Part shown: positions 11,113-64,000 of the stretch, in pieces
How the letters are laid out: each line of letters starts with the position of its first letter
How positions within the stretch are numbered: position 1 is the first letter of the stretch
Origin: a virus
Strand: one strand, 5' to 3'
Length of the DNA stretch: 64,000 nt
IMG/VR virus record: IMGVR_UViG_3300033183_000212
Span: 1 to 64,000 of that record
Made by a program: the position numbers and the translations under genes
Notes under the pieces: model-generated
The model's database searches: none
Told to the model about the DNA's origin: nothing
What the model saw: the letters and a program-made list of their open reading frames with translations, nothing else

Positions 11113-11115
11113 ATT

Positions 11116-26321: not shown

Positions 26322-26333
26322 TATTTATAAATA
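26322..26333. promoter_or_regulatory. palindromic TATTTATAAATA: back-to-back TATAAATA boxes on both strands
   Basis: Lies in the divergent intergenic region between the minus block (start 26245) and the plus genes (26340, pstS). Confidence 0.45.
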
Positions 26334-28481: not shown

Positions 28482-29101
28482 AAAAACATGAATTGCCTTT
28501 AGTTGCTGAATTTGATTTAAAAATTGATCTACTAAGACTTAAAGAAGCATCAGACAATATAGCTTACACATATACTAATGTAATTGATGCAAATCCGGGA
28601 TTATGTATGAATCATAAGGAACTCGTAAAAAATGTATATGATAATTTTGAACAAATTAATTTGACAACAGCATCTGAAATTTTATCATCAACAACTTCAA
28701 TCAAAGAAAGATTAAAACGTAAAGAAGAACATCTATTTAATGTTCCAACCAAAAATTATACTAATAGTATTTTTGAAGAAATAGTAACACAATTAAAAGC
28801 ACCTGCAAGTAGAGTTAGACTTACTAAATTAGCAGCTGGAAAGGAAATTCCTTTTCACGTTGATTATGATGTTAATTATGCTGTAAGATGTATTGTTCCA
28901 ATTTACACAAATACAAAAGTAATCAATCAATTTAAAATTGCTGATAAAATTGAAAGTTATAATTTAGAAGCTGGTAAAGCTTATTTTTTGAATATAGGTT
29001 ATCCACATAGAGTGCATAACAATTCAAATGAAGATAGAATTGCGTTAATGTTTAGTTTGGATGGAACAGATGATTTGGAATCATTTAGAAATAGCAGATG
29101 A
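28478..29101 (+). CDS. cupin-fold 2OG/Fe(II) hydroxylase (Asp/Asn beta-hydroxylase-like), paralog 1
   Basis: IPFHVDYDVNYAVRCIVPIYTN ... GYPHRVHNNSNEDRIALMFSL. Confidence 0.55.
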   Translation: MKKHELPLVAEFDLKIDLLRLKEASDNIAYTYTNVIDANPGLCMNHKELVKNVYDNFEQINLTTASEILSSTTSIKERLKRKEEHLFNVPTKNYTNSIFEEIVTQLKAPASRVRLTKLAAGKEIPFHVDYDVNYAVRCIVPIYTNTKVINQFKIADKIESYNLEAGKAYFLNIGYPHRVHNNSNEDRIALMFSLDGTDDLESFRNSR

Positions 29102-29858: not shown

Positions 29859-30700
29859 AAGCGTATCCTTGGGTTGATATTCCATGTCATAAAGATGTTT
29901 TGTTTCTATTAAAAGAACAAGATTTATCTCAGACATATTATAAACGTGGAAGCGGTAAAGCAACTCGTGATTTAGATAAAGTTGAAAAAGCACATCGAGA
30001 ATGGGTTAATGATATTATAGACCTATCGGAGTTTCCTCATTGCTATTTTACTAATGGTATAACAGATGCAATTCATCTTTGGCGAATAATAGAAACCAGG
30101 CCTTGGCAAAAATTCGATGGCGATTATCAATATATAAATATAATAGGTTCTGAGAGTTCTATTTGTTATGACGCATCAGACATTGATTTAAATAAACCAT
30201 TATATGTCTCAATTCCATCTGCTATTGATGGTAATATATTTGATTTAGATGACATTAGTGCTCCAGTTATTCTAGATTGCACATATGTAGGATCTACACA
30301 AATTAAAAAAATTAAAGTACCAAAAAACACAGAACAAGTGTTCTTTAGTTTCTCAAAAGGGTTTGGACTGATAGGACAGAGACTAGGCTTAATATATACA
30401 AAAGAGCCACACCCAATCTTAGATAGATTAAAAAAATTCGAAAACTGGAATTATGCAGGAGTAAAGACTATTGAATTATTGATTAATAATTTTAAAGTCG
30501 ATACTATGTGGAATAGATATAGAAAAAGACAATTAAAGATTTGTAGTCAATATAATTTTGAACCATCTGATTGTTTCTTTCTAGCAACTACAAAAGATGC
30601 ATATTATGCAAAACGGAGAAGGATGAAATTCAGCGACGATGCTCGTATTTGTATAACACCTCTATTTGATGATTACTTAAGTACAGAGAATAGTAAATGA
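29828..30700 (+). CDS. PLP-dependent aminotransferase-like protein (short)
   Basis: FFSFSKGFGLIGQRLGLIY matches the SxSK..G..G.R.G PLP-lysine block. The start is uncertain (29798 or 29828). Confidence 0.45.
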   Translation: MQGEQIKRKLKAYPWVDIPCHKDVLFLLKEQDLSQTYYKRGSGKATRDLDKVEKAHREWVNDIIDLSEFPHCYFTNGITDAIHLWRIIETRPWQKFDGDYQYINIIGSESSICYDASDIDLNKPLYVSIPSAIDGNIFDLDDISAPVILDCTYVGSTQIKKIKVPKNTEQVFFSFSKGFGLIGQRLGLIYTKEPHPILDRLKKFENWNYAGVKTIELLINNFKVDTMWNRYRKRQLKICSQYNFEPSDCFFLATTKDAYYAKRRRMKFSDDARICITPLFDDYLSTENSK

Positions 30701-31302
30701 CTATACGAAGATTTAAATTACAATACGACATTAATAAATTTCGAGATGAAATAGATGCGCTATGGCCTTTAGAAAAATACGGGTTTCACGGTGAATTTCC
30801 TACTCCTAATGGAACATATTATCAAAATATAAGAGAAGGCGAAATGCCTTCACATTTAAGAAAAGCTATTGAAAATAGTATTGGTAAAGCAATAAAAGAT
30901 TATTATTTTTTATGGGACTGGAGATGCTTAACTAAAGTTTTGTTAAAACACAGAGATGGTTGGGAAGATGCAAAGGGCAATCCAGATGGGATTTCAGAAT
31001 TCGATAAACATGTATTTGAAGAAGATGCTGAAATAATAGGAGTTCCTCCTCTAACGGTTGTAGTAGCATTAGAAAACAATTTTAGAATTGATATTCAAGA
31101 TAGTAAAACCAGTGAATGGAGAAGCGTAACATATGGTCCTGGAGATATAATATTTTTTAATAATGCAAAAGATCTTCATGGTGGTGAAGTATTAAATGAT
31201 CCAGATAACATACCAAGGAGATCTCTTAATTGTTATGTTGGACATGACCAACTTGCTAATGATTTAACATTCTGGGATAACCCGGATTATGATAAACAAT
31301 AA
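30697..31302 (+). CDS. hypothetical protein (possible 2OG oxygenase fold)
   Basis: GDIIFFNNAKDLHGGEVL...RRSLNCYV is only suggestive. Confidence 0.45.
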   Translation: MTIRRFKLQYDINKFRDEIDALWPLEKYGFHGEFPTPNGTYYQNIREGEMPSHLRKAIENSIGKAIKDYYFLWDWRCLTKVLLKHRDGWEDAKGNPDGISEFDKHVFEEDAEIIGVPPLTVVVALENNFRIDIQDSKTSEWRSVTYGPGDIIFFNNAKDLHGGEVLNDPDNIPRRSLNCYVGHDQLANDLTFWDNPDYDKQ

Positions 31303-31930
31303 TATCCCTTGGCCAGATATCCATATTAATAATGGAATAGGTAGAGTACCACTCAAAGAAAATTATGCCTTTGAAGATATGTGGTATCTTGATACACCTC
31401 AAGCTTTACCTATTTTTGAAAAACAAGCTGATATTATTATCGAACATCAATCAAAGGGAATAGTTGATATTGGATGTAGGCATGGACCTATCCTTGATAT
31501 TTTATATAAAAGAGGATATACAAATTTCAAATATATGGGATTTGACACTTCTGAAGAACCTATCAGATTAGCTCAAGAAAAATGGACGAATTCTAATAAT
31601 ATAGAATTCCGTAATGAAAGTTGGGAAAATATGGAAACTTTCATTGTTGATTTTGATGTCGATCAAGTTATCTGGTCAGGAGTATTGTTATATAAGCCAG
31701 AAGATCATTTTAATTTTTTTAATAATATTACAAAAGATTTTTATAATGCACGTAATGCAATTATACAAGAACCTTGTAACGATCAAAAATATTGGGATGA
31801 AAGATTAATACTTAACACAATCTCTGAAGAATTTGAAATTTATAAAAAGGAATATAAATCATTTAAAGAGCATATAATCAATGCCGAAATATTTGCTGGA
31901 CGTAGAATGATAATTGATATTGAATTATGA
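31289..31930 (+). CDS. SAM-dependent methyltransferase
   Basis: Motif I IVDIGCRHGPILDIL. Confidence 0.65.
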   Translation: MINNNIPWPDIHINNGIGRVPLKENYAFEDMWYLDTPQALPIFEKQADIIIEHQSKGIVDIGCRHGPILDILYKRGYTNFKYMGFDTSEEPIRLAQEKWTNSNNIEFRNESWENMETFIVDFDVDQVIWSGVLLYKPEDHFNFFNNITKDFYNARNAIIQEPCNDQKYWDERLILNTISEEFEIYKKEYKSFKEHIINAEIFAGRRMIIDIEL

Positions 31931-32544
31931 AAATTTGCGGAATAGCTTTTAGTTACAGTAAAAACTCTATGGCTTTTCGTGGATTAAGTTTGATGAACAA
32001 TTATTTAAATTTTCAATGGTATTGCCAAGTAACAGATATTCCATTATGCAATAGTAATATTCCGGATGGTAATGTTCCTAAATCCGTAGAAAGATTATGG
32101 AATAATATGAATAAATGTGACGTATTTGTTTTCTCTATACCAGAAACAACCGGCCATTATTCAGCTGCATTTAAAAACGTAATGGATTGGTTTGTTGTTA
32201 AATCTCAATTTAATTCTGATCTTGGTCAGAAATATCCAATGTCAAATAAACCGGTTGTTGTAATAACATTTACGCCAGTTTATAAAAATGCTGGCGACAG
32301 ACATTTTAATATGACTAAACATATATTGCAAGAAAAGCTTGGCGCAGATGTCATAGATATGATAGTTAAAAACGATTGTTGGCAACATGTTATACCAAAT
32401 AACTTTGAATTTGTAGCTGAAGAATGTAAACAAATATTAAGTATACCCCTTGAAAATAAAATTATTGAAAAGCCAGACATGGCTAAAGAGGTAGATGATT
32501 GGCAAAAAAAATATAAGGAATGGAACAATAAATGGCAAAATTAG
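31927..32544 (+). CDS. flavodoxin-fold NAD(P)H-dependent FMN reductase-like protein
   Basis: MKICGIAFSYSKNS... and DVFVFSIPETTGHYSAAFKNVMDW resemble the PF03358 pattern (tPeYn.s....lKnaiDw). Confidence 0.55.
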   Translation: MKICGIAFSYSKNSMAFRGLSLMNNYLNFQWYCQVTDIPLCNSNIPDGNVPKSVERLWNNMNKCDVFVFSIPETTGHYSAAFKNVMDWFVVKSQFNSDLGQKYPMSNKPVVVITFTPVYKNAGDRHFNMTKHILQEKLGADVIDMIVKNDCWQHVIPNNFEFVAEECKQILSIPLENKIIEKPDMAKEVDDWQKKYKEWNNKWQN

Positions 32545-32966
32545 ATACTACTGGATTGTTAATTTATAAAGACAATGATTTTAAACCATTTGAAATTGAT
32601 GAAACCAAACGTTATGTAATGTGTGGAGTTCCTGGAGCATTTACGCCTGGATGTACAGAAAAACATCTTCCGGGATATGTACAAGCATTAAATCAATTTT
32701 ATGAAAAAGGTATAGATCATATTATTTTCATGGGGGTAAATGACCCATGCGTAATGGATGCATGGAATAAGTTTCATGGTCATAAAGACATCATTGCGGT
32801 TGCTGATGCTGAAGCTGAGTTTACAAAAAGAATGGGATTTGATCATGATTATGGTCCTGGAATGGGTATTCGTTGCCGCCGCTTTGCTATTTTAATTGAA
32901 AACGGTGAAATGAAAAAAGAGATGCATATTCCATTTGCTCAAGGTGCGTTAGGGGAAATTTATTGA
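32532..32966 (+). CDS. peroxiredoxin (Prx5/atypical 2-Cys type)
   Basis: VPGAFTPGCTEKHLPGY active-site block. Confidence 0.8.
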   Translation: MAKLDTTGLLIYKDNDFKPFEIDETKRYVMCGVPGAFTPGCTEKHLPGYVQALNQFYEKGIDHIIFMGVNDPCVMDAWNKFHGHKDIIAVADAEAEFTKRMGFDHDYGPGMGIRCRRFAILIENGEMKKEMHIPFAQGALGEIY

Positions 32967-33607
32967 TTGATGCCGTTGCCGAATATTTAGATATTGATTT
33001 AGAGATTGAAAAATATCATTTAATATTTGATCAAGTAAATCAAGGCTATAATACATTTGGTAAAACCGAATGGCATAGCTATTCATTAGAAGATAATATC
33101 ACTGGAAAGGATTTACCGTTCTTAGAACTGTTTGAACCAATCCTTATTGAAATGCGCAATGTGCATCCTCATATACAAAAAAGATCTACTGGTTTTAATT
33201 ATGCAAATTCTTTAGAAAAAGATTTGTTTATTCATACCGATGTAGATTATGATACAAAACACCCAAAACATTTTAATATGGTTATTCCCATATTTGGTAA
33301 AGCTATAATAAATTATTATGAAACCCGTGAAGAAGAGATTTGGTTACCAGAAAAAAATGCACATGGCTATGCATATTATCATGAATTTTATTTGCGTAAT
33401 AAATCTGGCTATGAAGAATTTAAAAAGAAAAGAAAGATTGGTGAAATTATAGTAGAAGATAAGCCGGTTTTAATTGATACTAATCTAATGCATGGTGTTG
33501 AAATCCTTAAATCTCCTCGTTGTGCTTGGGTCACACGCTGGAATAATATTCCAGTTCACCATGATTTTTATACATGGAAATCTAGAGTAGAAAGAATATT
33601 AAAATGA
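32963..33607 (+). CDS. cupin-fold hydroxylase-like protein, paralog 2
   Basis: LFIHTDVDYDTKHPKHFNMVIPIFG and LMHGVEIL resemble 28478-29101. TTG start overlaps the upstream stop. Confidence 0.45.
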   Translation: MIDAVAEYLDIDLEIEKYHLIFDQVNQGYNTFGKTEWHSYSLEDNITGKDLPFLELFEPILIEMRNVHPHIQKRSTGFNYANSLEKDLFIHTDVDYDTKHPKHFNMVIPIFGKAIINYYETREEEIWLPEKNAHGYAYYHEFYLRNKSGYEEFKKKRKIGEIIVEDKPVLIDTNLMHGVEILKSPRCAWVTRWNNIPVHHDFYTWKSRVERILK

Positions 33608-34158
33608 TGCGAGTTGTTCCGTATATAGAAAATGGAAAAAGACTGTATGTAAATGATGATTTATGTATGGATGCTTTTTTAAAAATGGAAATAGAAAGCC
33701 AAAAAGATAGACTATACAAAAATTATACTTTTAATAATTTAAAATTAAATGAAATGTATAATTTTAATTTTGTATTTGATAATGACAATCCTGTGTTAGC
33801 ATCAGGATGCCAAGTATTTAATGAGAATGTAATTAGAGTTTTTAGTAGATATTATGTATTTGATGAATATAGAACCGATGGTAAAAAATTATTAGATAAA
33901 TCAGATGACTTTATGGAATTAAAATATAGTCTTAATCTTATTAAAAAATTTCCATTAATAATATGGGCTAGAGATAAATCATCTGGTTTTTTTAAAAGAC
34001 TTAAAGCCGAAAGATCTGATATATTCAAAAATTGGCAAATACACCATGAAAAAATAGAATTAAAATATAAAAACAATTTTCATAATATATTTTATATTGG
34101 TGACATTAGTCATTTACACAACCTACAATATGAAGTCTATAGTCAAAAGAAGCGTTAA
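33604..34158 (+). CDS. hypothetical protein
   Basis: ATGA-coupled ORF. AT-rich. No motif. Confidence 0.45.
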   Translation: MMRVVPYIENGKRLYVNDDLCMDAFLKMEIESQKDRLYKNYTFNNLKLNEMYNFNFVFDNDNPVLASGCQVFNENVIRVFSRYYVFDEYRTDGKKLLDKSDDFMELKYSLNLIKKFPLIIWARDKSSGFFKRLKAERSDIFKNWQIHHEKIELKYKNNFHNIFYIGDISHLHNLQYEVYSQKKR

Positions 34159-38582: not shown

Positions 38583-39818
38583 ATGAATACATTTCAGCAG
38601 TTCGTAACAGAACAAAAGAATACTCATATGACGCACCTTTAGCTTGAGGACAAGGTCCTCTATGGTGGTGTGAATGGTACGCGTCAGGCAATCCTCGCAT
38701 TGCGTTCACTCAGAGACATGTTGGCAGGAGTCCACGATGGAAAAGTTTCTGTTAAGTGGGATGGTGCTCCTGCTATTTTTGCTGGCATCGATCCTCGTGA
38801 TGGTAAGTTTTTTGTGGCAAAAAAAGGAATTTTTAACAAGTCACCAAAGGTTTATAAATCAGACGCTGATATTGACGCTGATACTAGCGGTGATCTCGCT
38901 GATAAACTCAAGTCTGCTCTTAAGCATCTCCCCGCACTAGGCATCAAGGGTGTAGTGCAAGGTGACTTCTTGTTCTCTAAAGCAGATATAAGAAATGAAA
39001 AGATCAAAGGACAGCAGTATGTTACTTTTCATCCCAATACTATTGTTTATGCTGTGCCTGCGAATACACAGATGGCCAAGGACATCAAGTCAGCACAGAT
39101 AGGTATTGTCTGGCACACCACATACACTGGTAACTCGTTTGAAACAATGAAAGCATCTTATGGCGTTGATGTGACTAAGTTTAACAAATCTACGAAGGTC
39201 TGGTCTCAGGACGCCATGCTGAAAGACATGACTCGTTACACAATGTCTAAACAGGACACTGACGAAGTCAATGAACACTTATCAAACGCAGGGAAGATAT
39301 TCAACCAGATTGCATCTAGTACGCTCCGTGAGCTGGAAGCTAATCAAGTTCTTGCCGGGACTATTGAAACATTCAATAATACTTTTGTACGAAGAGGGGA
39401 AGTTGTCATTGACACGAACAAGCATGTCAATAATCTCATTCGTTACATCGCTAATAAGTATAAGGTGCAGATAGACAAGGCAAAGAGCGAGAGAGGCAAG
39501 GCTTCTCAAACTGCAAAGATGCAAGAGACGTTGAAATTCTTTTCGGCTACAAACAAAAAGAATCTCAAATTAATGTTCGATTTGCAAAAATCTTTGATTC
39601 TTGCTAAATTAAAAATTATAAATATATTACAGCGACTGTCAAGCACGGCTACTTTTCTTAAAACTAAGAATGGTTTTAAAGTAACGGGCCAGGAAGGATA
39701 TGTTGCGATAGACACACTTGGTGGTGATGCAGTGAAAATTGTGGACCGTATGGAGTTCTCATACGCAAACTTTTCACCCGATATATTAAAAGGATGGGAT
39801 AAACCAACGAGGAACTGA
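38583..39818 (+). CDS. CTS-tagged ligase-like nucleotidyltransferase (KxDG), interrupted by an in-frame TAG at 38640-38642
   Basis: Strong AAGGAGG SD before the ATG at 38583. MNTFQQFVTEQKNTHMTHL*LEDKVLYGGVNGTRQA... is in the same frame as the track ORF (GTG 38670, no SD). VSVKWDGAPAIF is nucleotidyltransferase motif I. Confidence 0.55.
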
Positions 39819-40258
39819 TGTTAGACTTTAAAGACTTTATTGTCGCCGATTATCGTCCAGGCGAACCAGACATACTTAAGTACAGAGCTCAGCGTCGCCG
39901 TCGTTTAGGCGAAGAGGTTGAGCAGACTGATGAAGCATTGACCACAACGCAACGACTTGCTCGTAAGCGTCAGATGCAAAGAACCAAAGCCAAGATCAAG
40001 TTAGGCAGAGAGCGTGCCAAGCGTCGCTTTGCCTCGAAAGAGAAGCTGGAGAAGAGAGCAATTCGTCAAGCACGCATGATGATCTTCAAGAAGCTGACAA
40101 AAGACATTCCGAAAGACGAGCTGACATACGCTCGTAGAGCAGAGATTGAGAAGCGCTTGGAGAAACCAGCGCTCAAACAAAGGATTAAGATGATTGCTCG
40201 TAAGAATCTACCCAAGGTCCGTAAACAAGAGATCGAGAGAAAGAGAAGACAAAGCTAA
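39818..40258 (+). CDS. highly basic Arg/Lys-rich protein with a CTS-like N-terminus
   Basis: MLDFKDFIVAD..., then RRRR, KRQMQRTKAKIKLGRERAKRR. Confidence 0.6.
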   Translation: MLDFKDFIVADYRPGEPDILKYRAQRRRRLGEEVEQTDEALTTTQRLARKRQMQRTKAKIKLGRERAKRRFASKEKLEKRAIRQARMMIFKKLTKDIPKDELTYARRAEIEKRLEKPALKQRIKMIARKNLPKVRKQEIERKRRQS

Positions 40259-41439
40259 TGATTAGCTCTTTTAAATCGTACCTTGTCGAGGAAGAGAAAA
40301 CTGTTTATTTTACCTTCGGTAGAATGAACCCTCCTACTATTGGTCATGAGAAACTTCTTAATTCCCTCGCCACTAAGTCTGGCAATAATCCTTACCGTGT
40401 TTTTCTTTCGCAGTCTCAAGACAAAGCTAAGAATCCTATTGGGTATAAAGACAAAGTAAAGTTTGCACGTAAGATGTTTCCTCGTCATGCTCGCTCGATT
40501 ATGATGAATCCTAAGATCAAGACGTTCCTTGACGCTGCAGTTTCTCTGTATAACGAAGGCTTTAAGAATGTGGTCATGGTCGTAGGCGAAGATCGCGTCA
40601 ATGAGTTTGATATCTTGTTGAGCAAGTATAACGGTAAAAAGATGCGGCACGGTTTCTTTAACTTTGCTCGCATTAACGTCGTATCTGCTGGCCAGCGTGA
40701 TCCTGATGCAGAGGGAACAGAAGGCGCATCTGCTACAAAGCAGCGTCAACACGCAAAAGCAAAAGATTTCACTGGCTTCAGTCAAGGCTTGCCTAAGGGT
40801 GTAAGCAACGCTGATGCCAAAGCTCTGTTCAATGCCGTAAGAGTTGGCATGGGTCTGAAAGAAACCACAGACTTCACAACTCACGTCAAACTAGACACAG
40901 TGTCTGAGACGAGAGAGCAGTACGTTCAGGGAGATTTGTTTCAGGTTGGCGATCGAGTAGTTGTCATTGCGGACGACACGATCGCCACCGTTTCTCATCT
41001 GGGTTCTAACTACGTCATCATCGAGCAAGAAGGCTTGAAATTGCGTAAATGGTTACAGGATGTTGAGCTGTTAGAAAAAACCAGATCTCCTCAGGATCCT
41101 GATATCGGCGATCGTAAAGGTACACAGCCTAAAGCCTATCACTCTGGTTTGTCAAAGGCTACTAAGATCAAGAGAGACGCTCAGTTTAAAAAGCAGTCGA
41201 AGATGGATGATAATAATCCAAGGGCATATAAGCCTGCTCCTGGTGATAAGACAGCTAAGACAAAACCGAGTAAATATACGCTGAAGTTCAAGCAGATGTA
41301 TGGTGAACAGATGTCAGCCACTGATATCGCTAAGAAAAGAATTGATCAAGAAAAGAAAGCCGATGCCAAACGTCATGATAGAATGATGGATAGAGCACGG
41401 ACTAAGGATACTCAATCAATCAATAAGGCTACGAAATGA
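40258..41439 (+). CDS. CTS-tagged HxGH nucleotidyltransferase-fold protein with a Lys-rich C-terminal tail
   Basis: MISSFKSYLVEEE..., FTFGRMNPPTIGHEKLL (HIGH motif, compare NMNAT/cytidylyltransferase), and a disordered K-rich tail. Confidence 0.65.
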   Translation: MISSFKSYLVEEEKTVYFTFGRMNPPTIGHEKLLNSLATKSGNNPYRVFLSQSQDKAKNPIGYKDKVKFARKMFPRHARSIMMNPKIKTFLDAAVSLYNEGFKNVVMVVGEDRVNEFDILLSKYNGKKMRHGFFNFARINVVSAGQRDPDAEGTEGASATKQRQHAKAKDFTGFSQGLPKGVSNADAKALFNAVRVGMGLKETTDFTTHVKLDTVSETREQYVQGDLFQVGDRVVVIADDTIATVSHLGSNYVIIEQEGLKLRKWLQDVELLEKTRSPQDPDIGDRKGTQPKAYHSGLSKATKIKRDAQFKKQSKMDDNNPRAYKPAPGDKTAKTKPSKYTLKFKQMYGEQMSATDIAKKRIDQEKKADAKRHDRMMDRARTKDTQSINKATK

Positions 41440-52392: not shown

Positions 52393-52421
52393 TGTACAAT
52401 CCCCATGTTCTATGGTATAAT
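52393..52421 (+). promoter_or_regulatory. promoter TGTACA-N17-TATAAT embedded in a stem-loop
   Basis: The -10 lies in the loop of the hairpin at 52399-52439. Confidence 0.5.
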
Positions 52422-55442: not shown

Positions 55443-55564
55443 TGTTTACAGCGGGAATGCTTATTGTTCTCGCTTTCACGGTTTGGTGGTTGATTGACTA
55501 TCACTTTCGTTATGGTTTTAGGAACTTGATACATGATGTACAGCTGGGAAAAAAAGTGTTATAA
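55442..55564 (+). CDS. 40-aa small membrane protein
   Basis: Below the track cutoff. TAATG coupling. MFTAGMLIVLAFTVWWLI. Confidence 0.3.
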   Translation: MFTAGMLIVLAFTVWWLIDYHFRYGFRNLIHDVQLGKKVL

Positions 55565-55736
55565 TTATATTAAGTACTCAGGGATTTGGATTGGGATTGT
55601 GCTCAATCCATTTCACTGGAAGTTAAAGTATCAAACAAAAGCAGTTGAGTTTCCTGACTGCGACAACTTATTTGATAACTGTTTGTACGTTGGTCCAGTT
55701 TGGATTCGCGTAATCATCGATGATGGGCGTTGGTAA
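55533..55736 (+). CDS. hypothetical protein
   Basis: Track ORF. Its stop overlaps the next ATG (TAATG). Confidence 0.35.
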   Translation: MMYSWEKKCYNYIKYSGIWIGIVLNPFHWKLKYQTKAVEFPDCDNLFDNCLYVGPVWIRVIIDDGRW

Positions 55737-56530
55737 TGAAAAGAATGATATATCAGGTTTACGTCGGTAAACCAAGCAAACTATACGATCACTGCACGGC
55801 TTCTGTGGCCGCATACTGTAGTAGACACGGTATAGACTACACAATACAAAAGACTCCAATCTTAAAGATCAAACCTGACGTATTCGCTACGAATCGCAGT
55901 AAAGAGTCGTATGAGAAGCACGGTGGCTTCTTACCGATCTTTGAGAAAGAGAACGCGTTCGGATACTTCCCTGAGTATGATCAGATCGCGATTGTAGACG
56001 CTGACATCTACATTCGTTCTGATGCGCCAAACATTTTCGAAGAGCTTGAAGAAGAGACAGAGTTTGCCGGTGTTGTAGAGCGTGAGATGCCTATCACGCA
56101 TCAGTACGCTCAGAAGATCATCAATTACTCTCGCATGCAGTATCACAACCTGCACATCAACAAAGTTGCTAACTTTCAACCTAACCCACTAGGTTATGAG
56201 TTCTATAACATGGGCCTGATGGTGATGCAGTGTCATATTAAGAAGTACTTTAAGCCAGGTGAATCGCCTCACCAGTTTATTTCACGCCCAGAGTTTAAAG
56301 ACTTTGTTGATGGTCAAGGCGCTTGGAAATGGTCTACTGATCAGACCCTACTCAATACTTGGGTAAGAAAAGAGAAGATGAGACAGCATCACCTCGATTG
56401 GAAATGGAACGCGCTGTATAAAGGTGTGAGAGATGATAAGCTACCTGAAGCATACTTTGTACACTTTTTCTTAAAAGATCTTTTGCCTGAACGAGGTGAG
56501 AACGTACAACAGTTAATGAAACTGATATGA
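55736..56530 (+). CDS. glycosyltransferase (GT8-like nucleotide-diphospho-sugar transferase fold)
   Basis: QIAIVDADIYI DxD block. N-terminus MKRMIYQVYVG is related to the 58685, 59491 and 60177 paralogs. Confidence 0.6.
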   Translation: MKRMIYQVYVGKPSKLYDHCTASVAAYCSRHGIDYTIQKTPILKIKPDVFATNRSKESYEKHGGFLPIFEKENAFGYFPEYDQIAIVDADIYIRSDAPNIFEELEEETEFAGVVEREMPITHQYAQKIINYSRMQYHNLHINKVANFQPNPLGYEFYNMGLMVMQCHIKKYFKPGESPHQFISRPEFKDFVDGQGAWKWSTDQTLLNTWVRKEKMRQHHLDWKWNALYKGVRDDKLPEAYFVHFFLKDLLPERGENVQQLMKLI

Positions 56531-57544
56531 AATTTTTGATTTCATGGCCACGGCCTGAAGGTGAAGATCTGATTCAATACTTTGAAGGAGCTCAGAAGAA
56601 AAGCTCTGAGATAGCAAAGCGACCGTATCTTCATGATAAAGACCTGTACGCAGTTCCTTCTTTCTATCACACATTAGAAAAAGTGTTAGATGATATGGGT
56701 GTACCTCATGATAGGTTATATAGAAAGAGGTATAAGAGGATAGCCGCTCCAAACAAAGACGCAGTGGTGTTGTGTTATCACGCTCATTCAGACATCATAG
56801 AAAACAATGTGTGGTACGTACACACCTCTTCATTGGCTGGATACTTCACGGTTGATCGTAGAGGTTTTGCTGGATTCAGTGAACCAGCACATAACAAAAG
56901 CTTCTTTGAAGAAAGCAAAGGAGTAGACTTAGATCAAGCTAGAGAGTTCTTTGATAAGTTCTCTAAAGATTTTATTGAGTCCAGCTCAAGCAGAAACTTT
57001 CAACCTAAAGAAGATCTATCAATTGATGAACCCTATATCTTTATTGCTGGCCAACTTAGCTATGACTCTGTAGTCACTCAGCTCTGTCACATTAGACCTC
57101 CTCAAGAATACTATAACGAGATCGCAAAGGTTGCAAAGTGCAAGGTTGTGTATAAGAAACATCCAGCCGACGGCTTAAACAATAAGAAGAACGATCTAAA
57201 AAAACCAAATTATCCTAACGTTATAGAATATAATGGCTCTATACATAAAAGCTATTCAAGGAGCGCTTGGCGTATTTGTAATTAACTCCGGTGTGGGGTT
57301 TGAGGCTCTGCTACATAAGAAGAGAGTGTTTACGGCCGGTGAGTGTGACTATAAGTATATTACAGAGATCATAAATGACAACAGCCAAGTAGCTGCAAAG
57401 ATGAAGACTCTAGGTAAACCTATTGATGAAGAGTCGATCATTAAATATATGTACTACTTGATAAATGAAGTTTATGTTGATACGAGCTCTTATGACTCAA
57501 TTCGTAAAAAAGTGGAACGCATTATTAGAATGAATGGTAAATGA
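56527..57544 (+). pseudogene. capsule-polysaccharide-synthesis (KpsS/KpsC, Capsule_synth-like) gene split by a 1-nt frameshift at the A4 run 57247-57250
   Basis: ORF 56527-57285 (IFIAGQLSYDSVV, YKKHPAD) and ORF 57233-57544 (VFVINSGVGFEALLHKKRVF) read as one protein if one A is removed (...NGSIHK/AIQGALGVFVINSG...). Confidence 0.5.
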
Positions 57545-58683
57545 AAGTAATTGTACTTGGTGGTGATGGATTCTGTGGTTGGCCTACATCGTTAAAGCTA
57601 GCCAAGCGTGGTCATGATGTATTGATTCTAGATAACTTGTCGCGCAGAAGAATCGATGACGAGCTTCAGAGTAACTCGCTCACAAGAATCAGGGCCATAC
57701 ACGACAGGTGCCTTGCTGCAAACAGGATTGTAGGTAGCATAGACTGGCGCTTCTGTGATATCGCAAAGTCGTATGGCCAGTTAGTTCAGTGGGTAGAGAT
57801 GTTTGAGCCTGACGCTATCGTTCACTTCGCTGAACAACGTGCAGCTCCGTACTCAATGATCTCAAACAAAGAGAGACGGTACACCGTAGACAACAACATC
57901 ACTGCGACGAGTAACGTACTGAACGCAATCGTTGATGTAAATAAAGACATTCACTTAGTTCACCTAGGCACTATGGGTGTGTATGGATACTCGAAAGACT
58001 TTGGTGATATTCCAGAGGGATACCTAAACGTTAAGGTAAACTCGACTGAGAAAGACGTTGACATCCTGTATCCTACAAATCCTGGTAGCGTCTATCACAT
58101 GACTAAGTCAATGGACCAGTTGTTGTTTCAGTTTTACAAGAAGAACTGGAACCTTAAGATCACTGACCTACACCAAGGTATCGTATGGGGTACAGAGACG
58201 GCAGAGACTAAACTTCATCCAGATCTAGTAAACAGATTTGATTATGACGGTATCTATGGAACTGTATTGAATAGATTTATCTCACAAGCAGCAGTCGGTG
58301 TTCCATTGACTGTATACGGCACAGGCGGTCAGAAGCGCGCCTTCATTCACATTGAAGACACAACCAACTGTGTATCACTTGCGGTAGAGAATCCAGCTGA
58401 GACTGAAAAAGTTCGTATCTTCAACCAAGTGTCAGAGGTTCGTAGCGTAAAGGAACTTGCAGAGATCATACATAATCAGTATGGATCAGAGATATTCTAT
58501 CACGACAATCCAAGAAAAGAACTCGCCGAGAACGATCTCGCCGTAAGTAATGAAGGTCTGAGATCCTTAGGCTTTGATCCTATCCTGTTGAACCAGTGGC
58601 TGATCGATGACGTAAAGTTTATTGCAGCCGAGCTGAAGCAGAACTTTAACAAAGACAACATAATGACATCACCGAAGTGGTAA
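57541..58683 (+). CDS. sqdB: UDP-sulfoquinovose synthase (SQD1/SqdB-like)
   Basis: VLGGDGFCGWPTSLKL, DNLSRRRIDDEL, FAEQRAAPYSM, HLGTMGVYGY, VYHMTKS, DLHQGIVWG and GTVLNRFISQAAVGVPLTVYGTGGQKRAFIHIEDT parallel plant and cyanobacterial SQD1 blocks. Confidence 0.8.
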   Translation: MKVIVLGGDGFCGWPTSLKLAKRGHDVLILDNLSRRRIDDELQSNSLTRIRAIHDRCLAANRIVGSIDWRFCDIAKSYGQLVQWVEMFEPDAIVHFAEQRAAPYSMISNKERRYTVDNNITATSNVLNAIVDVNKDIHLVHLGTMGVYGYSKDFGDIPEGYLNVKVNSTEKDVDILYPTNPGSVYHMTKSMDQLLFQFYKKNWNLKITDLHQGIVWGTETAETKLHPDLVNRFDYDGIYGTVLNRFISQAAVGVPLTVYGTGGQKRAFIHIEDTTNCVSLAVENPAETEKVRIFNQVSEVRSVKELAEIIHNQYGSEIFYHDNPRKELAENDLAVSNEGLRSLGFDPILLNQWLIDDVKFIAAELKQNFNKDNIMTSPKW

Positions 58684-58684
58684 T

Positions 58685-59494
58685 ATGAACACCTTGATAT
58701 ATCAATGTTGGGACGGACCAGAGCGTCCTGGAAATCTCGCTGGAATCAAAGAGACTCAAGCATATGCCAAGCGAATCGGCTCTGAATACATGTATGAACA
58801 TGATGCTAAGTTTAGAACAGATCTTGGATCTTATTCTCCTAACTTTGGTAAGCTTAAACCCGTATATGATAAACAGTTTGAAAAGTATGACTATGTGATG
58901 TACACAGACTGTGACGTCATTCCAGTTAAAGACTGCAGAGAAAACATCTTTGAATGGTTTGCATCTACTGGAGCTGAAGTTGGAATCTGTGAAGAGTGGA
59001 ACGCACCACTTGCAAGAAAGAAGCACACCATCGGTGGTGGAATCAATAATGAGAACGATGAGAAGTGGGTAGGTATCGTACAGAAGAAGTGGCCTGTTGT
59101 CATGCCTAGGACTGTTGATGGCTTACCTAAAGTGTACAACACCGGTGTTCTCATGTTTTCTCGTGAAGGTTTACTCAAGGCAAGAGAAAGACTCTTTGAC
59201 TTTGCAAAGTATGTCAACCTAGCGAGAGTGTTTAATCTTCCTGCGTTCTATGGCTGCGATCAACCTTACTTTCATGCCATGTTAGAGGTGTGTAAGTTTA
59301 ACTGGATCACCATGCCTTACAAATGGAACAGCTCGGTTCACTACGATCCAGGTGTCAAGACTAAACCGAGGCCCGTGATTGACCTGAGAAAAGATGCCAA
59401 CTTTGTGCACGTTCAACTCAACGGAGCAGACCATTGGGATGAAGATAAGATCTTGAGAGTAGTGAATGAGCCAGTGAGTGAGTGGAACCTATGA
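58685..59494 (+). CDS. glycosyltransferase, paralog A
   Basis: MNTLIYQCWDG...; YVMYTDCDVIP DxD block. Confidence 0.6.
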   Translation: MNTLIYQCWDGPERPGNLAGIKETQAYAKRIGSEYMYEHDAKFRTDLGSYSPNFGKLKPVYDKQFEKYDYVMYTDCDVIPVKDCRENIFEWFASTGAEVGICEEWNAPLARKKHTIGGGINNENDEKWVGIVQKKWPVVMPRTVDGLPKVYNTGVLMFSREGLLKARERLFDFAKYVNLARVFNLPAFYGCDQPYFHAMLEVCKFNWITMPYKWNSSVHYDPGVKTKPRPVIDLRKDANFVHVQLNGADHWDEDKILRVVNEPVSEWNL

Positions 59495-60180
59495 AGAACC
59501 TGATCCTTCAGTACTGGACTGGCAACATGCCTGAGTGGGCCAGACTTGCAATGGAGTCCATTAAGTTATACTCGAGTAAGATCGGTGCTGAGTATCAGCT
59601 AGTGAGCGGATGGCCTGTTGGAGAGTACAGAGGTGTAGTGTCACAGAAGATATGTCTAGTCAATGAAGAGTATGATGAGTATGATAATGTGCTGATGCTT
59701 GACACGGACATGGTTTACTCTGGCATTGTAGATGATGTGTTTCAGTATGAAGGTGTAGGTCGACTGCACTTGAAAGCAATGGGATCTAAGGAAGCAACTA
59801 AGCAAGGAAGGTACTGGCCTAATCTCTATAAGCAGGGTGCACCTTTATTCTTTGGTAACTTCGTCAAGTTAAATCGTGAGGAGAGAATCAAGCTTCGCGA
59901 GCACATGCCTTCAGAGCAGATGATTCGTGAAAACATGAGTAATCCAAACCTGTCTAGATTTAAGACTTCTAACCCGCCAAACGATGAACAGAACATGCAC
60001 TATATGATTCATCATAGCGGTGCACTTAAGGATAAGGCTGAGCTCATGGTTCCACACGATAGGTTCTGTGATCTGCCTGAAGAAGCTCATCCAAAGGCAA
60101 CGCTACTGCACTTCTGCAATCACAGAAAGAACTTCATCATTGATTATATTCGTAAGAATCATAAGTTAAAATTACTATGA
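59491..60180 (+). CDS. glycosyltransferase, paralog B
   Basis: MKNLILQYWTG...; NVLMLDTDMVY. ATGA overlap. Confidence 0.55.
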   Translation: MKNLILQYWTGNMPEWARLAMESIKLYSSKIGAEYQLVSGWPVGEYRGVVSQKICLVNEEYDEYDNVLMLDTDMVYSGIVDDVFQYEGVGRLHLKAMGSKEATKQGRYWPNLYKQGAPLFFGNFVKLNREERIKLREHMPSEQMIRENMSNPNLSRFKTSNPPNDEQNMHYMIHHSGALKDKAELMVPHDRFCDLPEEAHPKATLLHFCNHRKNFIIDYIRKNHKLKLL

Positions 60181-60875
60181 AAAATATTATTCTTCAGCAC
60201 TTTCATCCTATGCGTCCTAAAGTTATTGAGGAGATGGAGAAGCGCAAAGGTCTTCCTTTTATCGTTGAGAAGAGCATTGAAAACATTCGTAAGTACGCCG
60301 AGAAGCTAAGCGCAGAGTATAAGCTGCTCGATGGTGAGCCGTTTCAAAAAGGACTCAGAGCTCAGTGTCAGAAGTGTGCAGCGATCAATGAAGAGTATGA
60401 TGACTATGACGTGGTGGTTGTACTAGACACTGATAAGTTTGTTACGACTACGTGCACTGAAAACGTGTTTGAGGCTAAAGGTATCGCGCCGTTTGACGAT
60501 GTACATAGAAACAGACAGCTGCCTCAGTTTATTCAAGAGTTTCCACACTTAGGCAACAAGAACTATCCACTCTGGTCTGGCGCAATCTATGTCATGCCTC
60601 GAGACTTTCGTCAGTTAATGAGAGCACAGATCAACGATTCAATGCGTAAAGTCTTTGAGCTGATCAGTCCTCGTCCATACGTTGATGAAGGCATCTTCCA
60701 TGTCTTGTGCCACAAGGCTAAGTTTAAGTTAGATAAGTACTTAGATGAGAAGTGGGATTATAGCAGCTACTTGCCTAATCCTGAGAAAGCAAACATGATT
60801 CACATTCGTCACCGACCAAAGAGTCGTGATGAGAACTATATGGATTTAGTGAAAGCAGGAATTATTGCGGAATGA
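60177..60875 (+). CDS. glycosyltransferase, paralog C
   Basis: MKNIILQHF...; VVVVLDTDKFV. ATGA overlap. Confidence 0.55.
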   Translation: MKNIILQHFHPMRPKVIEEMEKRKGLPFIVEKSIENIRKYAEKLSAEYKLLDGEPFQKGLRAQCQKCAAINEEYDDYDVVVVLDTDKFVTTTCTENVFEAKGIAPFDDVHRNRQLPQFIQEFPHLGNKNYPLWSGAIYVMPRDFRQLMRAQINDSMRKVFELISPRPYVDEGIFHVLCHKAKFKLDKYLDEKWDYSSYLPNPEKANMIHIRHRPKSRDENYMDLVKAGIIAE

Positions 60876-61561
60876 AAAACTTAGAGAGAACTTGTCCTGT
60901 TGTCGTAAATGAACTGCGGGATCACGGCCATCAGATAAACGTAGTGTATGACATCGGAGCAAACGATGGAAGATGGTACAAAGACTGGAAGCCTCTTCTA
61001 CCTAAAGCTCAGTTCATTATGTTTGAAGCAAATCCAAACAGCAAGCTGAGATACAGTATAGAGAAACATGAAAAACGTTTTCTTCAAGTGCTGTCTGATG
61101 CAGATGATAAAACAGTTCAGTTCTTTCTGGCAAACAATGGTAAAGAATCAACTGGTGATAGCTATTACAAAGAGTTGACTGCTAACTACTCTGAAGGAAA
61201 GTCAGTGTTGCTGAAGACTAAAACTCTCAACACGATGATCTCTGAAAACAACTTGCCTCTTCCAGACTTTATTAAGATGGACACTCAAGGTTCAGAGGTT
61301 GATATCATGAAGGGAGGGTCTGATGCGTTGAATCACGCTAAGGTTGCACTGATTGAAGTTTCAGTGATGCCTTATAACACCAACGCACCAATCTTTAACG
61401 ATTACATAGATACAATGTACTCTTATGGTTTCATTCCTTCTGGAGTACACAACATTGCAATGAGAAAAGGCGTAGTGAACCAGATGGACATCGTCTTTAC
61501 TAAGTCTGACATCAATAACGAGATTCATCAGCACAGAGACCGGTATAAAGGATTTGTATAA
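60872..61561 (+). CDS. FkbM-family methyltransferase
   Basis: VYDIGANDGRW and FIKMDTQGSEVDIMKG. Confidence 0.7.
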   Translation: MKNLERTCPVVVNELRDHGHQINVVYDIGANDGRWYKDWKPLLPKAQFIMFEANPNSKLRYSIEKHEKRFLQVLSDADDKTVQFFLANNGKESTGDSYYKELTANYSEGKSVLLKTKTLNTMISENNLPLPDFIKMDTQGSEVDIMKGGSDALNHAKVALIEVSVMPYNTNAPIFNDYIDTMYSYGFIPSGVHNIAMRKGVVNQMDIVFTKSDINNEIHQHRDRYKGFV

Positions 61562-62277
61562 TGCACGCATATGTAATCACAGTCGACGGCAATCTCATCT
61601 CTCAAAGTGCCGCGAACAACTGCATTGATTCTCATAAAAAATTTAAGCAAGACTTTCCTATTGAAAGATATAATGCAGTAAGGCCTGAACAAGTAGATGA
61701 AGAGTTTAAGTATCTTTCATTTGTTTGGACTTATCCTTGGGATGAACCGAGGACCGACTTTAAGAGTGGCTTAAAGCTCACTCCTTACAGGACTGCAGAC
61801 CGCAAGAAGAGGATCGCTTGTTTTTTAAGTCACTATCAACTATGGCAAAGGTGTGTACTTAAAAAGAGGCCTATCCTAGTGCTTGAACACGATGCGCTAT
61901 TTATTCGACCTTTTAACTACCAGTATACATTAGATTCAAAGTATGGTATAATTGGCATCAACAATCCGCTTGGCGCGACGCGTCGGGCTGATGTGTTTGA
62001 CAGTCAGGTACAAACTATGCGAGGAGAGAACTTAGATGCTGATGGAGTTTTACCGGTACCAACTATTGATAACTTCGATATACCTCAAGGTCTGGCAGGG
62101 AATTCTGCCTACGTCATCAAGCCACACGGCGCAGAGGAACTCTTAGACGCGGTGAACGCTCACGGTGCGTGGCCAAACGACGCAATCATGTGCAAGCAGA
62201 TCTTACCAAACGTACTAGGCGTTACAAAGAAGTACTACACAAAAGTGCAAGGCACTAGATCTACAACTACACTATGA
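61561..62277 (+). CDS. glycosyltransferase family 25-like, copy 1
   Basis: RIACFLSHYQLWQRC and ILVLEHDALF. Confidence 0.7.
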   Translation: MHAYVITVDGNLISQSAANNCIDSHKKFKQDFPIERYNAVRPEQVDEEFKYLSFVWTYPWDEPRTDFKSGLKLTPYRTADRKKRIACFLSHYQLWQRCVLKKRPILVLEHDALFIRPFNYQYTLDSKYGIIGINNPLGATRRADVFDSQVQTMRGENLDADGVLPVPTIDNFDIPQGLAGNSAYVIKPHGAEELLDAVNAHGAWPNDAIMCKQILPNVLGVTKKYYTKVQGTRSTTTL

Positions 62278-62930
62278 ACTTTAAAGCATTCGTCATTACA
62301 GTAAAAGACAACGAAAAGTCAGAGGAAGCAGCAGATAGGTGCATCAAGTCTGCTGTTCGATTTGATCTTGAAGTTGAGAAGCACTACGGATATAACGCAA
62401 AGGATGACGTTATAGCGGTTGCTAAGCAAGAAGGAATCCTGTCAATCGACCGGTTCAGGGCAAATGAGTACTCACGATTTCCAAACGTACTCGCTGCGTT
62501 TTTATCTCATAGGTCTCTGTGGAAGAAATCTCACCTTGAAGAGCAGCCAGTCATCATCTTTGAGCATGATGCGGTTGTAGTTGACGCTATTCCTTTTAAC
62601 ACGCCGTTTAAGCACCTAGTGTCTCTCGGCAAACCATCCTATGGTAAGTTCAACATTCCATCTGTCATTGGACTAGGTCCTCTAAAGTCTAAGCCGTACT
62701 TGCCTGGTGCTCATGCTTATATGCTCAAGCCTAGTGGAGCAAATATGCTTCTCAGAGCTGCGGTGCAGAAAGCTGAACCGACAGACATCTTTATCAACAT
62801 GTATAACTTCCCTTGGCTCCAAGAGTACTATCCTTGGCCAGTTGAGGTGATAGATAATTTTTCGACGATTCAATACATCTATGGAAGCTATGCAAAGCAC
62901 AGTTATGATGAGAACTATCAGATAGTATGA
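62274..62930 (+). CDS. glycosyltransferase family 25-like, copy 2
   Basis: LAAFLSHRSLWKK and VIIFEHDAVV. Tandem paralog of the previous gene. Confidence 0.65.
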   Translation: MNFKAFVITVKDNEKSEEAADRCIKSAVRFDLEVEKHYGYNAKDDVIAVAKQEGILSIDRFRANEYSRFPNVLAAFLSHRSLWKKSHLEEQPVIIFEHDAVVVDAIPFNTPFKHLVSLGKPSYGKFNIPSVIGLGPLKSKPYLPGAHAYMLKPSGANMLLRAAVQKAEPTDIFINMYNFPWLQEYYPWPVEVIDNFSTIQYIYGSYAKHSYDENYQIV

Positions 62931-63607
62931 TTTCAGTTGCATGCGTGTACTGGGGAAACAAGTTTCCTATTGAGTACGTTTATAATCTTAGATCTGCTGT
63001 AAAGAGAAACACAAGTGTTCCTCATGAATTTGTCGTGTTCTCTGACAGGCAGATACCAGACGTAAAGACAAAGATCCTTGACAAAGGACTAGAAGGTTGG
63101 TGGAACAAGCTTCAGATGTTCAACACTAAGTTTGCGTTGAACAAAGAGGTTGTTTACTTTGATCTCGATACACTCATCACCGGTAATATAGACTGGCTAA
63201 TGAAGTATGAAACAACGTTTATGGGTATTGAAGACTTAGGATCTATAAACGCTCATCAGCCGCACTTGAAAGGAAGACTGCAGAGTGGAGTGATGAAGTG
63301 GAACTATCCTCTCGGTAAGTCTATCTGGGACATCTTTGTTCAGAACCAACATGTAATGGGAATGATTCGAGGAGACGGAGAGTTCTTAAACGAATACATA
63401 CCAAAAGAGAGGAGAGAGCTGATTCAGCGAATCTTTCCGGGCAAGTTAAAGTCTTATAAGTATCAGGTCTATAAAGAAGGCGTGAAGGACACTGCAATCG
63501 TGTGCTTTCACGGGCGGCCTAGTATCATACAGGCGATGACTGAAACTGTACAGACGCCTAGAGCTAAGTTTGAGCCTAGAGAGTGGATCAAGGATTATTG
63601 GAAATGA
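62927..63607 (+). CDS. putative glycosyltransferase
   Basis: VVYFDLDTLITGNIDWL is a DxD-like block. Confidence 0.45.
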   Translation: MISVACVYWGNKFPIEYVYNLRSAVKRNTSVPHEFVVFSDRQIPDVKTKILDKGLEGWWNKLQMFNTKFALNKEVVYFDLDTLITGNIDWLMKYETTFMGIEDLGSINAHQPHLKGRLQSGVMKWNYPLGKSIWDIFVQNQHVMGMIRGDGEFLNEYIPKERRELIQRIFPGKLKSYKYQVYKEGVKDTAIVCFHGRPSIIQAMTETVQTPRAKFEPREWIKDYWK

Positions 63608-64000
63608 AGAAGGTTGTTCATATAATTGGAAACGGAGACAGCGCCGACTTGTACAACAAGAAGCAGAGAGTCGGTCTTAAACTTACATGTAACATTGCTC
63701 CTTTTCCTGTACAAGGCGCGTATGCCACATGTATCGTTGACTTTAAGATGATGAGATCTATCACCAATGGTGAGATCGATGTGCCAGGCGAATGGGTACT
63801 AGGTTATCGTCCTAAGATCTGGATGGACCAACATCCTAACTTTTATATGAAGAGAGCTAATCAGATCAAAGAGTTCTTTACAAAGAAGCCAGACTACGCC
63901 AAGAACTACACTGATTTAAACTGTGGCCACATGGCTACTTACTACGCAATTCATAAGTTTAAACCAGATGAGATCGATCTATATGGGTTTGACTCTATCT
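63604..64000 (+). CDS. partial ORF (3' end beyond the window), sialyl/Kdo-transferase or MAF-like fold
   Basis: Open frame from ATG 63604 to the window end. IIGNGDSA...GHMATYYAIHKFKPDEIDLYGFDSI. Confidence 0.4.
   Translation, partial: MKKVVHIIGNGDSADLYNKKQRVGLKLTCNIAPFPVQGAYATCIVDFKMMRSITNGEIDVPGEWVLGYRPKIWMDQHPNFYMKRANQIKEFFTKKPDYAKNYTDLNCGHMATYYAIHKFKPDEIDLYGFDSI

Follow-up and report, generated by a model that had tools for sequence, protein, structure and literature searches.

The production of sulfoquinovose (SQ) has been ascribed almost wholly to the sulfolipid of phototrophs (PMC13436972). The enzymes that make its activated form, uridine diphosphate (UDP)-SQ, namely plant SQD1 (1qrr/1i24), SqdB and archaeal Agl3, belong to a single family. 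A homolog of these enzymes is encoded at positions 57541–58683 of the stretch of viral DNA analysed here, which comprises positions 1 to 64,000 of IMG/VR record IMGVR_UViG_3300033183_000212 (64,000 nucleotides, hereafter the window) and comes from a T4-like phage. The phage protein matches SQD1, SqdB and Agl3 over its full length and shares with them the nicotinamide adenine dinucleotide (NAD) site, the family signature and the essential residues, but it is found in a T4-like phage, falls, with two bacterial copies from polysaccharide loci, into a separate clade and has no linked lipid transferase. Its gene lies in a run of glycan-synthesis genes, the island, that starts at 55736 and extends past 64000.

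Several described systems share features with this island. The alphaproteobacterial sqdB-sqdD-sqdC operon also has an SQD1-type gene beside a small gene of the GT8 glycosyltransferase superfamily, but the phage island lacks SqdC, has the reversed gene order and includes nine further glycan genes. The 'LPS' (lipopolysaccharide) clusters of the T4-like cyanophages P-SSM2, S-SCSM1 and S-SCSM2R (PMC12801897) likewise consist of clustered small glycosyltransferases, including GT25 and GT24/GT8-like enzymes, together with a nucleotide-sugar enzyme, and are carried by marine T4-like phages related to the Kyanoviridae; in contrast to the island studied here, which implies a sulfonated sugar, they contain neither an SQD1 homolog nor the GT8-like family. 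The use of UDP-SQ for a glycan, rather than a lipid, is known from the Agl3-dependent N-glycan of Sulfolobus acidocaldarius (PMC8987622, PMC4388408), but that system is archaeal, dolichol-linked and served by an oligosaccharyltransferase, and none of this machinery is present in the island. Among viruses, Paramecium bursaria chlorella virus 1 (PBCV-1) encodes a set of glycan enzymes, with methylation among their functions, and its A64R (2p6w) is a soluble retaining transferase of the GT-A fold that resembles the GT8-like protein of the island in structure; however, PBCV-1 is a eukaryotic virus with no known sulfonated sugar, and the two proteins are only 13–14% identical in sequence. A putative UDP-SQ synthase has also been described in a Mu-like virus from the Cariaco Basin, whose authors considered glycosylation among its possible uses (PMC7785012), but this is a different type of virus, represented by a single contig, with no glycosyltransferase island or clade-wide conservation described. 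Literature searches for SQ in O-antigens or capsules of bacteria, and for sqdB as an auxiliary metabolic gene of viruses, yielded this virus and no other case. What is new here is the predicted donor of a sulfonated sugar in a marine T4-like 'LPS' island; the enzyme family and the type of island were already known.

A first-pass annotation, made from the sequence alone, had described a glycan-synthesis island centred on SQD1 in a T4-like phage. This description was borne out, and every gene that it listed lies on the + strand, with the coordinates given below.

A Probable UDP-Sulfoquinovose Synthase

The open reading frame (ORF) at 57541..58683 (+ strand) encodes a protein of 380 amino acids (aa) that matches the NCBIfam model for UDP-SQ synthase, NF041015, with 357 bits (E 1e-106). 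The next NCBIfam family, GalE, reaches 55 bits, and the models for dTDP-glucose 4,6-dehydratase and other short-chain dehydrogenases/reductases score no more than that, so the protein is not an ordinary 4,6-dehydratase, a possibility that the first-pass annotation had left to profile searches. Among structures, it aligns with Arabidopsis SQD1 (PDB 1qrr) over residues 2–380 at 44% identity (E 3.6e-91), followed at a distance by the UXS family (E 8e-12), and it is 55–57% identical to SqdB of Ensifer, Rhodovulum and Nodosilinea. Its score is below the NF041015 equivalog cut-off of 575 bits, which is uninformative because Arabidopsis SQD1 (483 bits) and the operon-confirmed SqdB proteins of Ensifer, Rhodovulum and a cyanobacterium (335–338 bits) also fall below it.

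The sequence blocks by which the homolog had been recognised (GGDGFCGW, FAEQRAAPYSM, GTMGVYGY and GTVLNRF..QAAVG.PLTVYG.GGQ.R.F) are all present in the translation. The family signature is [ST]MG...Yx3K, whereas 4,6-dehydratases have [ST]DE or [ST]DK instead (PMC8987622); in the window protein it reads LGTMGVYG...YHMTK, and the G-xx-G-xx-G site for NAD is GGDGFCG. Alanine mutants of Agl3 at His95, Arg101, Met145, Tyr182 and Lys186 are inactive (PMC4388408). Equivalents of all these residues, as well as of SQD1 His183 and Gln209, are found in the window protein, and H95, R100, M145, Y185, H186, K189 and Q212 are invariant in 37 of 37 full-length phage copies. The sole departure from the plant and archaeal enzymes is the replacement of Glu by Val after TMG (Agl3 Glu147), and this Val is common to all 27 SqdB proteins from sqdB-sqdD-sqdC operons. 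Pairwise dN/dS values of about 0.05–0.18 among phage SQD1 genes, with synonymous sites near saturation, indicate that the gene is under purifying selection in the syntenic phage clade. Every feature that defines the SQD1/SqdB/Agl3 family and can be read from sequence is thus present, and the ORF very probably encodes a UDP-SQ synthase, which would catalyze the formation of UDP-SQ from UDP-glucose and sulfite.

Organization and Gene Content of the Island

The island is an unbroken run of ORFs on the + strand from 55736 to past 64000. Stop and start codons overlap at all junctions between 56527 and 63607, an arrangement typical of a single operon, here one of about ten sugar-transferring or sugar-methylating enzymes around the SQD1 homolog. 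No transmembrane-like hydrophobic segment was detected in any island protein, and none of them has a Pfam domain of an initiating phosphoglycosyltransferase, flippase, polymerase or exporter.

The first gene (55736..56530; 264 aa from the ATG at 55736) encodes the GT8-like protein, which carries a DADIY motif. Its match to PF01501 (E 2.5e-4, 21.2 bits) is under the Pfam cut-off of 24.3, but its AlphaFold2 model, with a mean predicted local distance difference test (pLDDT) score of 85.9, has a GT-A fold of the retaining type. In Foldseek searches the model matched UGGT (E 3e-10) and PBCV-1 A64R (E 5e-9, TMt 0.65–0.69), and further XXYLT1, WbbM, LgtC and glycogenin; E values against the GT8/GT24 clan range from 1e-6 to 3e-10, with template modelling (TM) scores of only about 0.5. 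We label the protein 'GT8-clan, divergent'. The SQD1 gene is followed by three further genes of this kind, DxD-A (58685..59494, 269 aa), DxD-B (59482..60180, 232 aa) and DxD-C (60177..60875, 232 aa). None of these three has a Pfam match above cut-off; DxD-A shows weak similarity to the GT8 domain of LARGE1 (E 0.009) and to PF01501 (E 0.068), and a sequence-profile search with DxD-B and DxD-C against the PDB gave no significant match. DxD-B and DxD-C are similar to each other in BLASTP (E 6e-10), their family aligns with DxD-A in hhalign (probability 99.2%, E 2e-19), and DxD-A aligns in turn with the GT8-like family (98.7%, E 4e-16). Through these two profile links, the four proteins are paralogues of one divergent GT8-clan family; the first-pass annotation had correctly taken the three DxD transferases for paralogues but had missed that the GT8-like protein is a fourth member.

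Next in the operon are an FkbM-family methyltransferase (60872..61561, 229 aa), with 62.5 bits to PF05050 and 62.1 to TIGR01444, and two tandem GT25 glycosyltransferases, GT25a (61561..62277, 238 aa) and GT25b (62274..62930, 218 aa), which are paralogous (E 2e-10) and match PF01755 with 48.9 and 29.5 bits (cut-off 24). All three had been named as such before and score above the curated cut-offs.

Two ORFs had been thought to run off the window. The one at 62927..63607 (226 aa) is complete; it has a DLDT motif and is transferase-like by this motif only, with no Pfam match, no significant hhalign alignment to the DxD-A family and a top PDB match, Skp1 galactosyltransferase, that is not significant (E 0.12). 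It is present in only 4 related loci. The other one, the last ORF of the island (63604..64000), does run off, with the first 132 of about 202 aa inside the window, and appears to be DUF115/MptE-like with a sialyltransferase-like fold. Its full-length homologs are found in 25 related loci, at the end of the island. For one of these, P0241, which is 84% identical to the last ORF, the AlphaFold2 model (pLDDT 90.8) matched ST3Gal-I (2wml; E 3.7e-3, probability 0.96, TM 0.41) and also ST6GALNAC2, and the homolog matched viral DUF115/MptE-like proteins at E 1e-3 to 6e-3. The last ORF itself matches PF01973 at E 0.027, with no significant match in a sequence-profile search against the PDB. As modelled, its similarity to GT29 sialyltransferases and to viral proteins of the DUF115/MptE-like kind is weak. 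The continuation of the island past position 64000, which the first-pass annotation had wished to see, was viewed in relatives L001 and L159, where the island closes with a 202-aa ORF homologous to this one; very little of the island therefore lies beyond the window.

Between the GT8-like and SQD1 genes, positions 56527..57544 (+ strand) hold a gene similar to β-Kdo (3-deoxy-D-manno-oct-2-ulosonic acid) transferases of the KpsS/KpsC/WbbB type, which appears as two ORFs, 56527–57285 and 57233–57544. The view that this is one split KpsS/KpsC-like gene proved right: it is interrupted by a 1-nucleotide frameshift in the A-run 57247–57250, and, as sequenced, there is no intact KpsS/KpsC/WbbB ORF that passes PF05159. 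The C-terminal piece matches PF05159 at E 1.5e-5, and the repaired protein of 338 aa, with one A removed, does so across the junction with 29.8 bits (cut-off 20). The repaired protein also matches WbbB (5fa0/8csb) at E 0.003, and the KpsS equivalog model gives 18.9 bits versus a cut-off of 600. This gene is absent from the 74 related viral loci described below, from IMG/VR and from GenBank phages, and its guanine-plus-cytosine (GC) content is 0.38, as against about 0.43 in its neighbours. In our reading, this gene was inserted recently, is specific to the window and is either decaying or mis-assembled; the frameshift may reflect a pseudogene, an assembly error or slippage.

The late-promoter-like motif TATAAATA, which precedes pstS and other blocks of the window, was not found within or just upstream of the island, which is located in the replication/metabolism module. 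Sites similar to sigma70 promoters (TGTACA, 17 nucleotides, TATAAT, with an upstream TG) were found at 52393–52421, before a denV-like gene, and at 55537–55565, before the island. The latter was rejected as a conserved island promoter, since the upstream regions of relatives differ, and promoter-like sites are not enriched in the island region (24 found versus 30 expected from shuffled sequence).

Distribution and Phylogeny

No SQD1 homolog was found among 50,697 GenBank phage records, where the top matches were generic epimerases with 22–26% identity. GenBank phages also lack homologs of the DxD-C and GT8-like families; for DxD-A and for the last ORF, the sole relatives there are distant ones in phage C48C1, and GT25a has a few matches at 27%. 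The IMG/VR database, on the other hand, contains 74 loci with SQD1 homologs, 46 of which share a syntenic island with the order phoH ... GT8-like, SQD1, DxD paralogues, FkbM, GT25, GT25, last ORF, and with mosaic gene content. The GT8-like gene is present in 41 of these 46 loci, and a GT8-clan paralogue directly flanks SQD1 in 28 of the 34 loci for which both flanks are available.

In a search of 185,579 species genomes, Paramylibacter ulvae had the cellular copy nearest to the phage gene (70% identity), all others showing 54–59%; the copy in a Neptuniibacter genome is 69% identical to phage SQD1. The Neptuniibacter locus (L075/L076, 10001–11146), of the classical type for surface polysaccharides, encodes a Wzx-type flippase, an acyltransferase, a pyruvyl transferase, GT4 and GT2 glycosyltransferases, Bac_transf, a PglF-like protein and Wzz, and the copy of P. 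ulvae (L078, 10001–11146) adjoins two Stf0 sulfotransferases and a GT4-GT2 fusion. These surroundings, taken with the Gln that both proteins have in place of Agl3 His95, suggest that both loci make undescribed SQ-like sugars of polysaccharides, possibly with altered chemistry. The canonical order sqdB-sqdD(GT8)-sqdC was seen in 27 of 80 cellular loci. In a neighbour-joining tree, the syntenic phage clade is monophyletic, its sisters are the copies of Paramylibacter and Neptuniibacter, and the sqdBDC group branches separately.

Other viral contigs have gained SQD1 independently and also within glycan clusters. On large phage contigs, the gene is accompanied by an epimerase, FkbM and Caps_synth in L039 (9090–12545), by a methyltransferase and a sulfotransferase in L042 (11194–13028), and by NeuB and DUF4910 in L045 (9286–12508). 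Contigs of giant-virus metagenome-assembled genomes (MAGs), L048/L049 and L060, encode SQD1 homologs with 50–52% identity; in L048 the gene next to SQD1 is a GT25 (11199–11975), and in L060, which has a GC content of 0.23, RFC subunits and an Asn/Asp-tRNA synthetase are encoded nearby. No lipid transferase adjoins SQD1 in any of the viral or cellular non-sqdBDC cases examined.

Proposed Product and Acceptor of the Pathway

Given the gene content of the island, we propose that during infection the phage makes UDP-SQ from UDP-glucose and sulfite of the host with its SQD1-type enzyme, and that one of the co-encoded soluble GT-A transferases would place SQ into an oligosaccharide. This oligosaccharide would be built in the cytoplasm by the four GT8-clan enzymes, two GT25 enzymes, the sialyltransferase-like enzyme and the FkbM O-methyltransferase, resulting in a sulfonated and methylated glycan rather than sulfoquinovosyldiacylglycerol (SQDG). 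The acceptor that we favour is a glycolipid of the host envelope, of the lipid A-core or lipooligosaccharide (LOS) type or of the capsule-linker type, which would be exported by host machinery and alter the cell surface during infection. The phage might benefit through a block of superinfection or by keeping its progeny from adsorbing to debris. The parts of this proposal differ in strength: a glycan product is probable, whereas the envelope as acceptor is put forward tentatively, and the activity of the enzyme, the transferase that would use UDP-SQ, the acceptor and the benefit to the phage are inferred.

An alternative product is SQDG itself, with phage SQD1 raising the level of UDP-SQ so that the infected cell makes more sulfolipid, transferred by SqdX or SqdD of the host or by the GT8-like protein as an SqdD analogue, and sparing phosphorus for phage DNA. 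SqdD of Rhodobacter is a GT8 enzyme, and a GT8 SqdD is encoded directly after sqdB in the Ensifer and Rhodovulum loci, much as phage SQD1 abuts a GT8-clan gene; phage SQD1, at 55–57% identity to SqdB of the lipid pathway, still keeps all catalytic residues, and the window contains both pstS and phoH, which the first-pass annotation had found fitting for sulfolipid. However, membership of the GT8-like protein in the SqdD family was tested by hhalign and rejected, the alignment (probability 7%) covering 25 columns around the DxD. With SqdD and SqdC as queries, tblastn found no match in the window, and there is no SqdD homolog in any viral locus. In agreement with the first-pass annotation, which had seen no SqdX-type lipid transferase, no island ORF has a GT4/GT-B Pfam domain of the SqdX/SQD2 type. 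Judged by the partner enzymes searched for, the island does not belong to the SQDG pathway. The phage clade, moreover, is nested neither in sqdBDC nor in cyanobacterial SqdB, the 8 or 9 further transferases and the methyltransferase would be superfluous for SQDG synthesis, pstS is 29 kb away, and its product hints at a heterotrophic host (see below). Sulfolipid boosting is unlikely and the weakest case when set against the glycan readings. Still less probable is that the enzyme has a different product in vivo, such as UDP-glucose-5,6-ene or the adduct of another nucleophile, and that the glycan contains a different 6-modified sugar. In the absence of sulfite, SQD1 and Agl3 do behave as 5,6-dehydratases (PMC8987622; PMC4388408), the sister bacterial homologs have Gln in place of His95, and no phage-encoded sulfite source, including a CysH motif, was found in the window; but host sulfate assimilation normally supplies sulfite, the residues essential in Agl3 and SQD1 are invariant in the 37 phage copies, and the Val after TMG is that of all 27 SqdB proteins of sqdBDC operons. 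Least credible of all is hypermodification of phage DNA, in which the transferases would add sugars, including SQ, to hydroxymethylated bases. T4-like phages glycosylate their DNA, and genes for a thymidylate-synthase-like enzyme and for an α-glucosyltransferase PHROG are present in the window; we know of no DNA-modifying precedent, though, for the GT8-clan, GT25, sialyltransferase-like or FkbM families, and the modification candidates lie in a separate block 40 kb away (9.9–16.2 kb). Glucosylation of DNA has been raised as one possible use of phage glycosyltransferases (PMC12801897).

The glycan context of SQD1 (two GT25 enzymes, FkbM and four GT8-clan paralogues in the island) leaves the question of where the glycan is attached. 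The known precedents for GT8 and GT25 are enzymes of the LOS/LPS core, and a β-Kdo-transferase-like gene was recruited into the island; these families, together with the polysaccharide context of the sister bacterial SQD1 genes and the position of the island in the replication/metabolism module, away from the structural genes and with no late-promoter-like motif, speak for the host envelope and against decoration of the virion. Islands of this kind in cyanomyoviruses have been read as serving modification of the cell surface (PMC12801897). The rival view is that the soluble transferases decorate the structural proteins of the phage itself with a methylated, SQ-containing glycan, which would alter the surface charge, stability or recognition of the particle. 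The idea that the phage so coats its virion proteins with an SQ-containing oligosaccharide is plausible, though somewhat less likely than the envelope reading. It would have analogues in the glycosylation of chlorovirus capsids and of mycobacteriophage virions; to our knowledge, there is no direct evidence of glycosylated virions in any marine T4-like phage. All island enzymes are soluble, as virion glycosylation would have it, and since no phosphoglycosyltransferase, flippase or polymerase is encoded, a route to the envelope must use the lipid A-core or carriers of the host. The mosaic content of the island across relatives is usual for surface-glycan loci, and Thr/Asn/Ser-rich ORFs (25436–26245 and 24067–25500) lie in the window behind a late-promoter-like motif, which the island lacks. 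Several further points weigh against the envelope proposal. The top structural matches of the GT8-like model include UGGT, PBCV-1 A64R and XXYLT1, which glycosylate proteins, and SQD1 is likewise paired with GT25 in giant-virus MAGs, for which there is no LPS to modify; both observations are at least equally compatible with virion glycosylation. The lack of a late promoter motif at the island is weak evidence, the neighbour-joining tree carries no support values or bootstrap, and in both sister bacterial homologs Gln replaces His95, a residue that Agl3 cannot do without, which makes their chemistry uncertain.

Phage Backbone and Other Regions of the Window

The backbone of the window is that of a T4-like phage, with a gp43 DNA polymerase that matches phrog_262 with 1040 bits and with genes for UvsX, a gp41-like helicase, RNase H, RegA, NrdAB and PhoH. 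In GenBank, the polymerase is most similar to that of Kyanoviridae phage C48C1 (53%), ahead of those of cyanomyoviruses (about 49%), and no DNA near-identical to the window was found among GenBank phages. The pstS gene (26540–27403; PF12849, E 3e-38), 29 kb from the island, is genuine and is preceded by its own TATAAATA motif. Its product is closer to enterobacterial PstS (42% identity) than to the cyanophage proteins (34%), which hints that the host is heterotrophic and not a cyanobacterium.

Divergent from pstS, on the − strand, are two Thr/Asn/Ser-rich ORFs without family matches, at 25436–26245 (18% Thr, 14% Asn) and 24067–25500, and TATAAATA motifs on both strands overlap in the region between them and pstS (26322–26333). 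Both are candidates for targets of glycosylation or for fibre proteins. On the other side of pstS, a low-GC block (27849–34158; 0.30 versus about 0.43), preceded by TATAAATA at 27833, comprises 11 co-directional ORFs of about 200 aa each and looks like a separately acquired island. It encodes a fragment of a DesA-like desaturase (27849–28481), a TauD-family dioxygenase (29061–29858) and a methyltransferase-like ORF (31289–31930). The TauD-family ORF was considered as a source of sulfite and rejected, as it does not match the taurine-dioxygenase equivalog, its top match being PtlD with 28 bits; together with an FMN (flavin mononucleotide) reductase it had looked suggestive of such a source, and the idea was dropped.

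A second block of sugar and DNA-modification genes, distinct from the SQD1 island, occupies approximately 9888–16166. It contains a UDP-glucose dehydrogenase-like ORF (10285–11100) that is apparently split or truncated, with an ORF at 9888–10298 upstream, followed by a thymidylate-synthase-like ORF (11116–12030), the α-glucosyltransferase PHROG (12791–14035), a nucleoside diphosphate-sugar epimerase (14032–14979) and a DNA methyltransferase-like ORF (14949–16166). This block may be a DNA modification system that produces glycosylated bases. Elsewhere, a DUF6267 protein (38670–39818, E 6.5e-94) is followed by a small ORF (39818–40258) and a cytidylyltransferase-like PHROG protein that weakly matches DUF5824 (40258–41439); the genes at 38670–41439 probably serve nucleotide or NAD metabolism rather than the synthesis of cytidine monophosphate-linked sugars.

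Implications

An intact UDP-SQ synthase in glycan operons of a conserved phage clade and, through independent acquisitions, of other large phages and of giant-virus MAGs suggests a second, virus-driven route for SQ. This route would place the sugar in the glycans of virions or of the heterotrophic bacteria that are infected and, if confirmed, would add both a new source and a new sink to the marine sulfur cycle. What is glycosylated by the 'LPS-like' glycosyltransferase islands that marine T4-like phages carry is a long-standing question; because SQ is a sulfur-containing mass tag of about 226 Da that can be labelled with 35S, this question becomes directly testable. If SQ is indeed carried on the virion, it would be the first sulfonated sugar on any virus particle, the biology of sulfoquinovose would reach beyond photosynthetic sulfolipid and archaeal N-glycans, and Neptuniibacter and Paramylibacter would make undescribed surface polysaccharides that contain SQ. 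The analysis also points to polysaccharide loci of bacteria whose products are probably polymers with SQ. The phage gene set, conserved as it is in a sizeable clade of uncultured phages, would imply that SQ-containing glycans exist outside the archaea.

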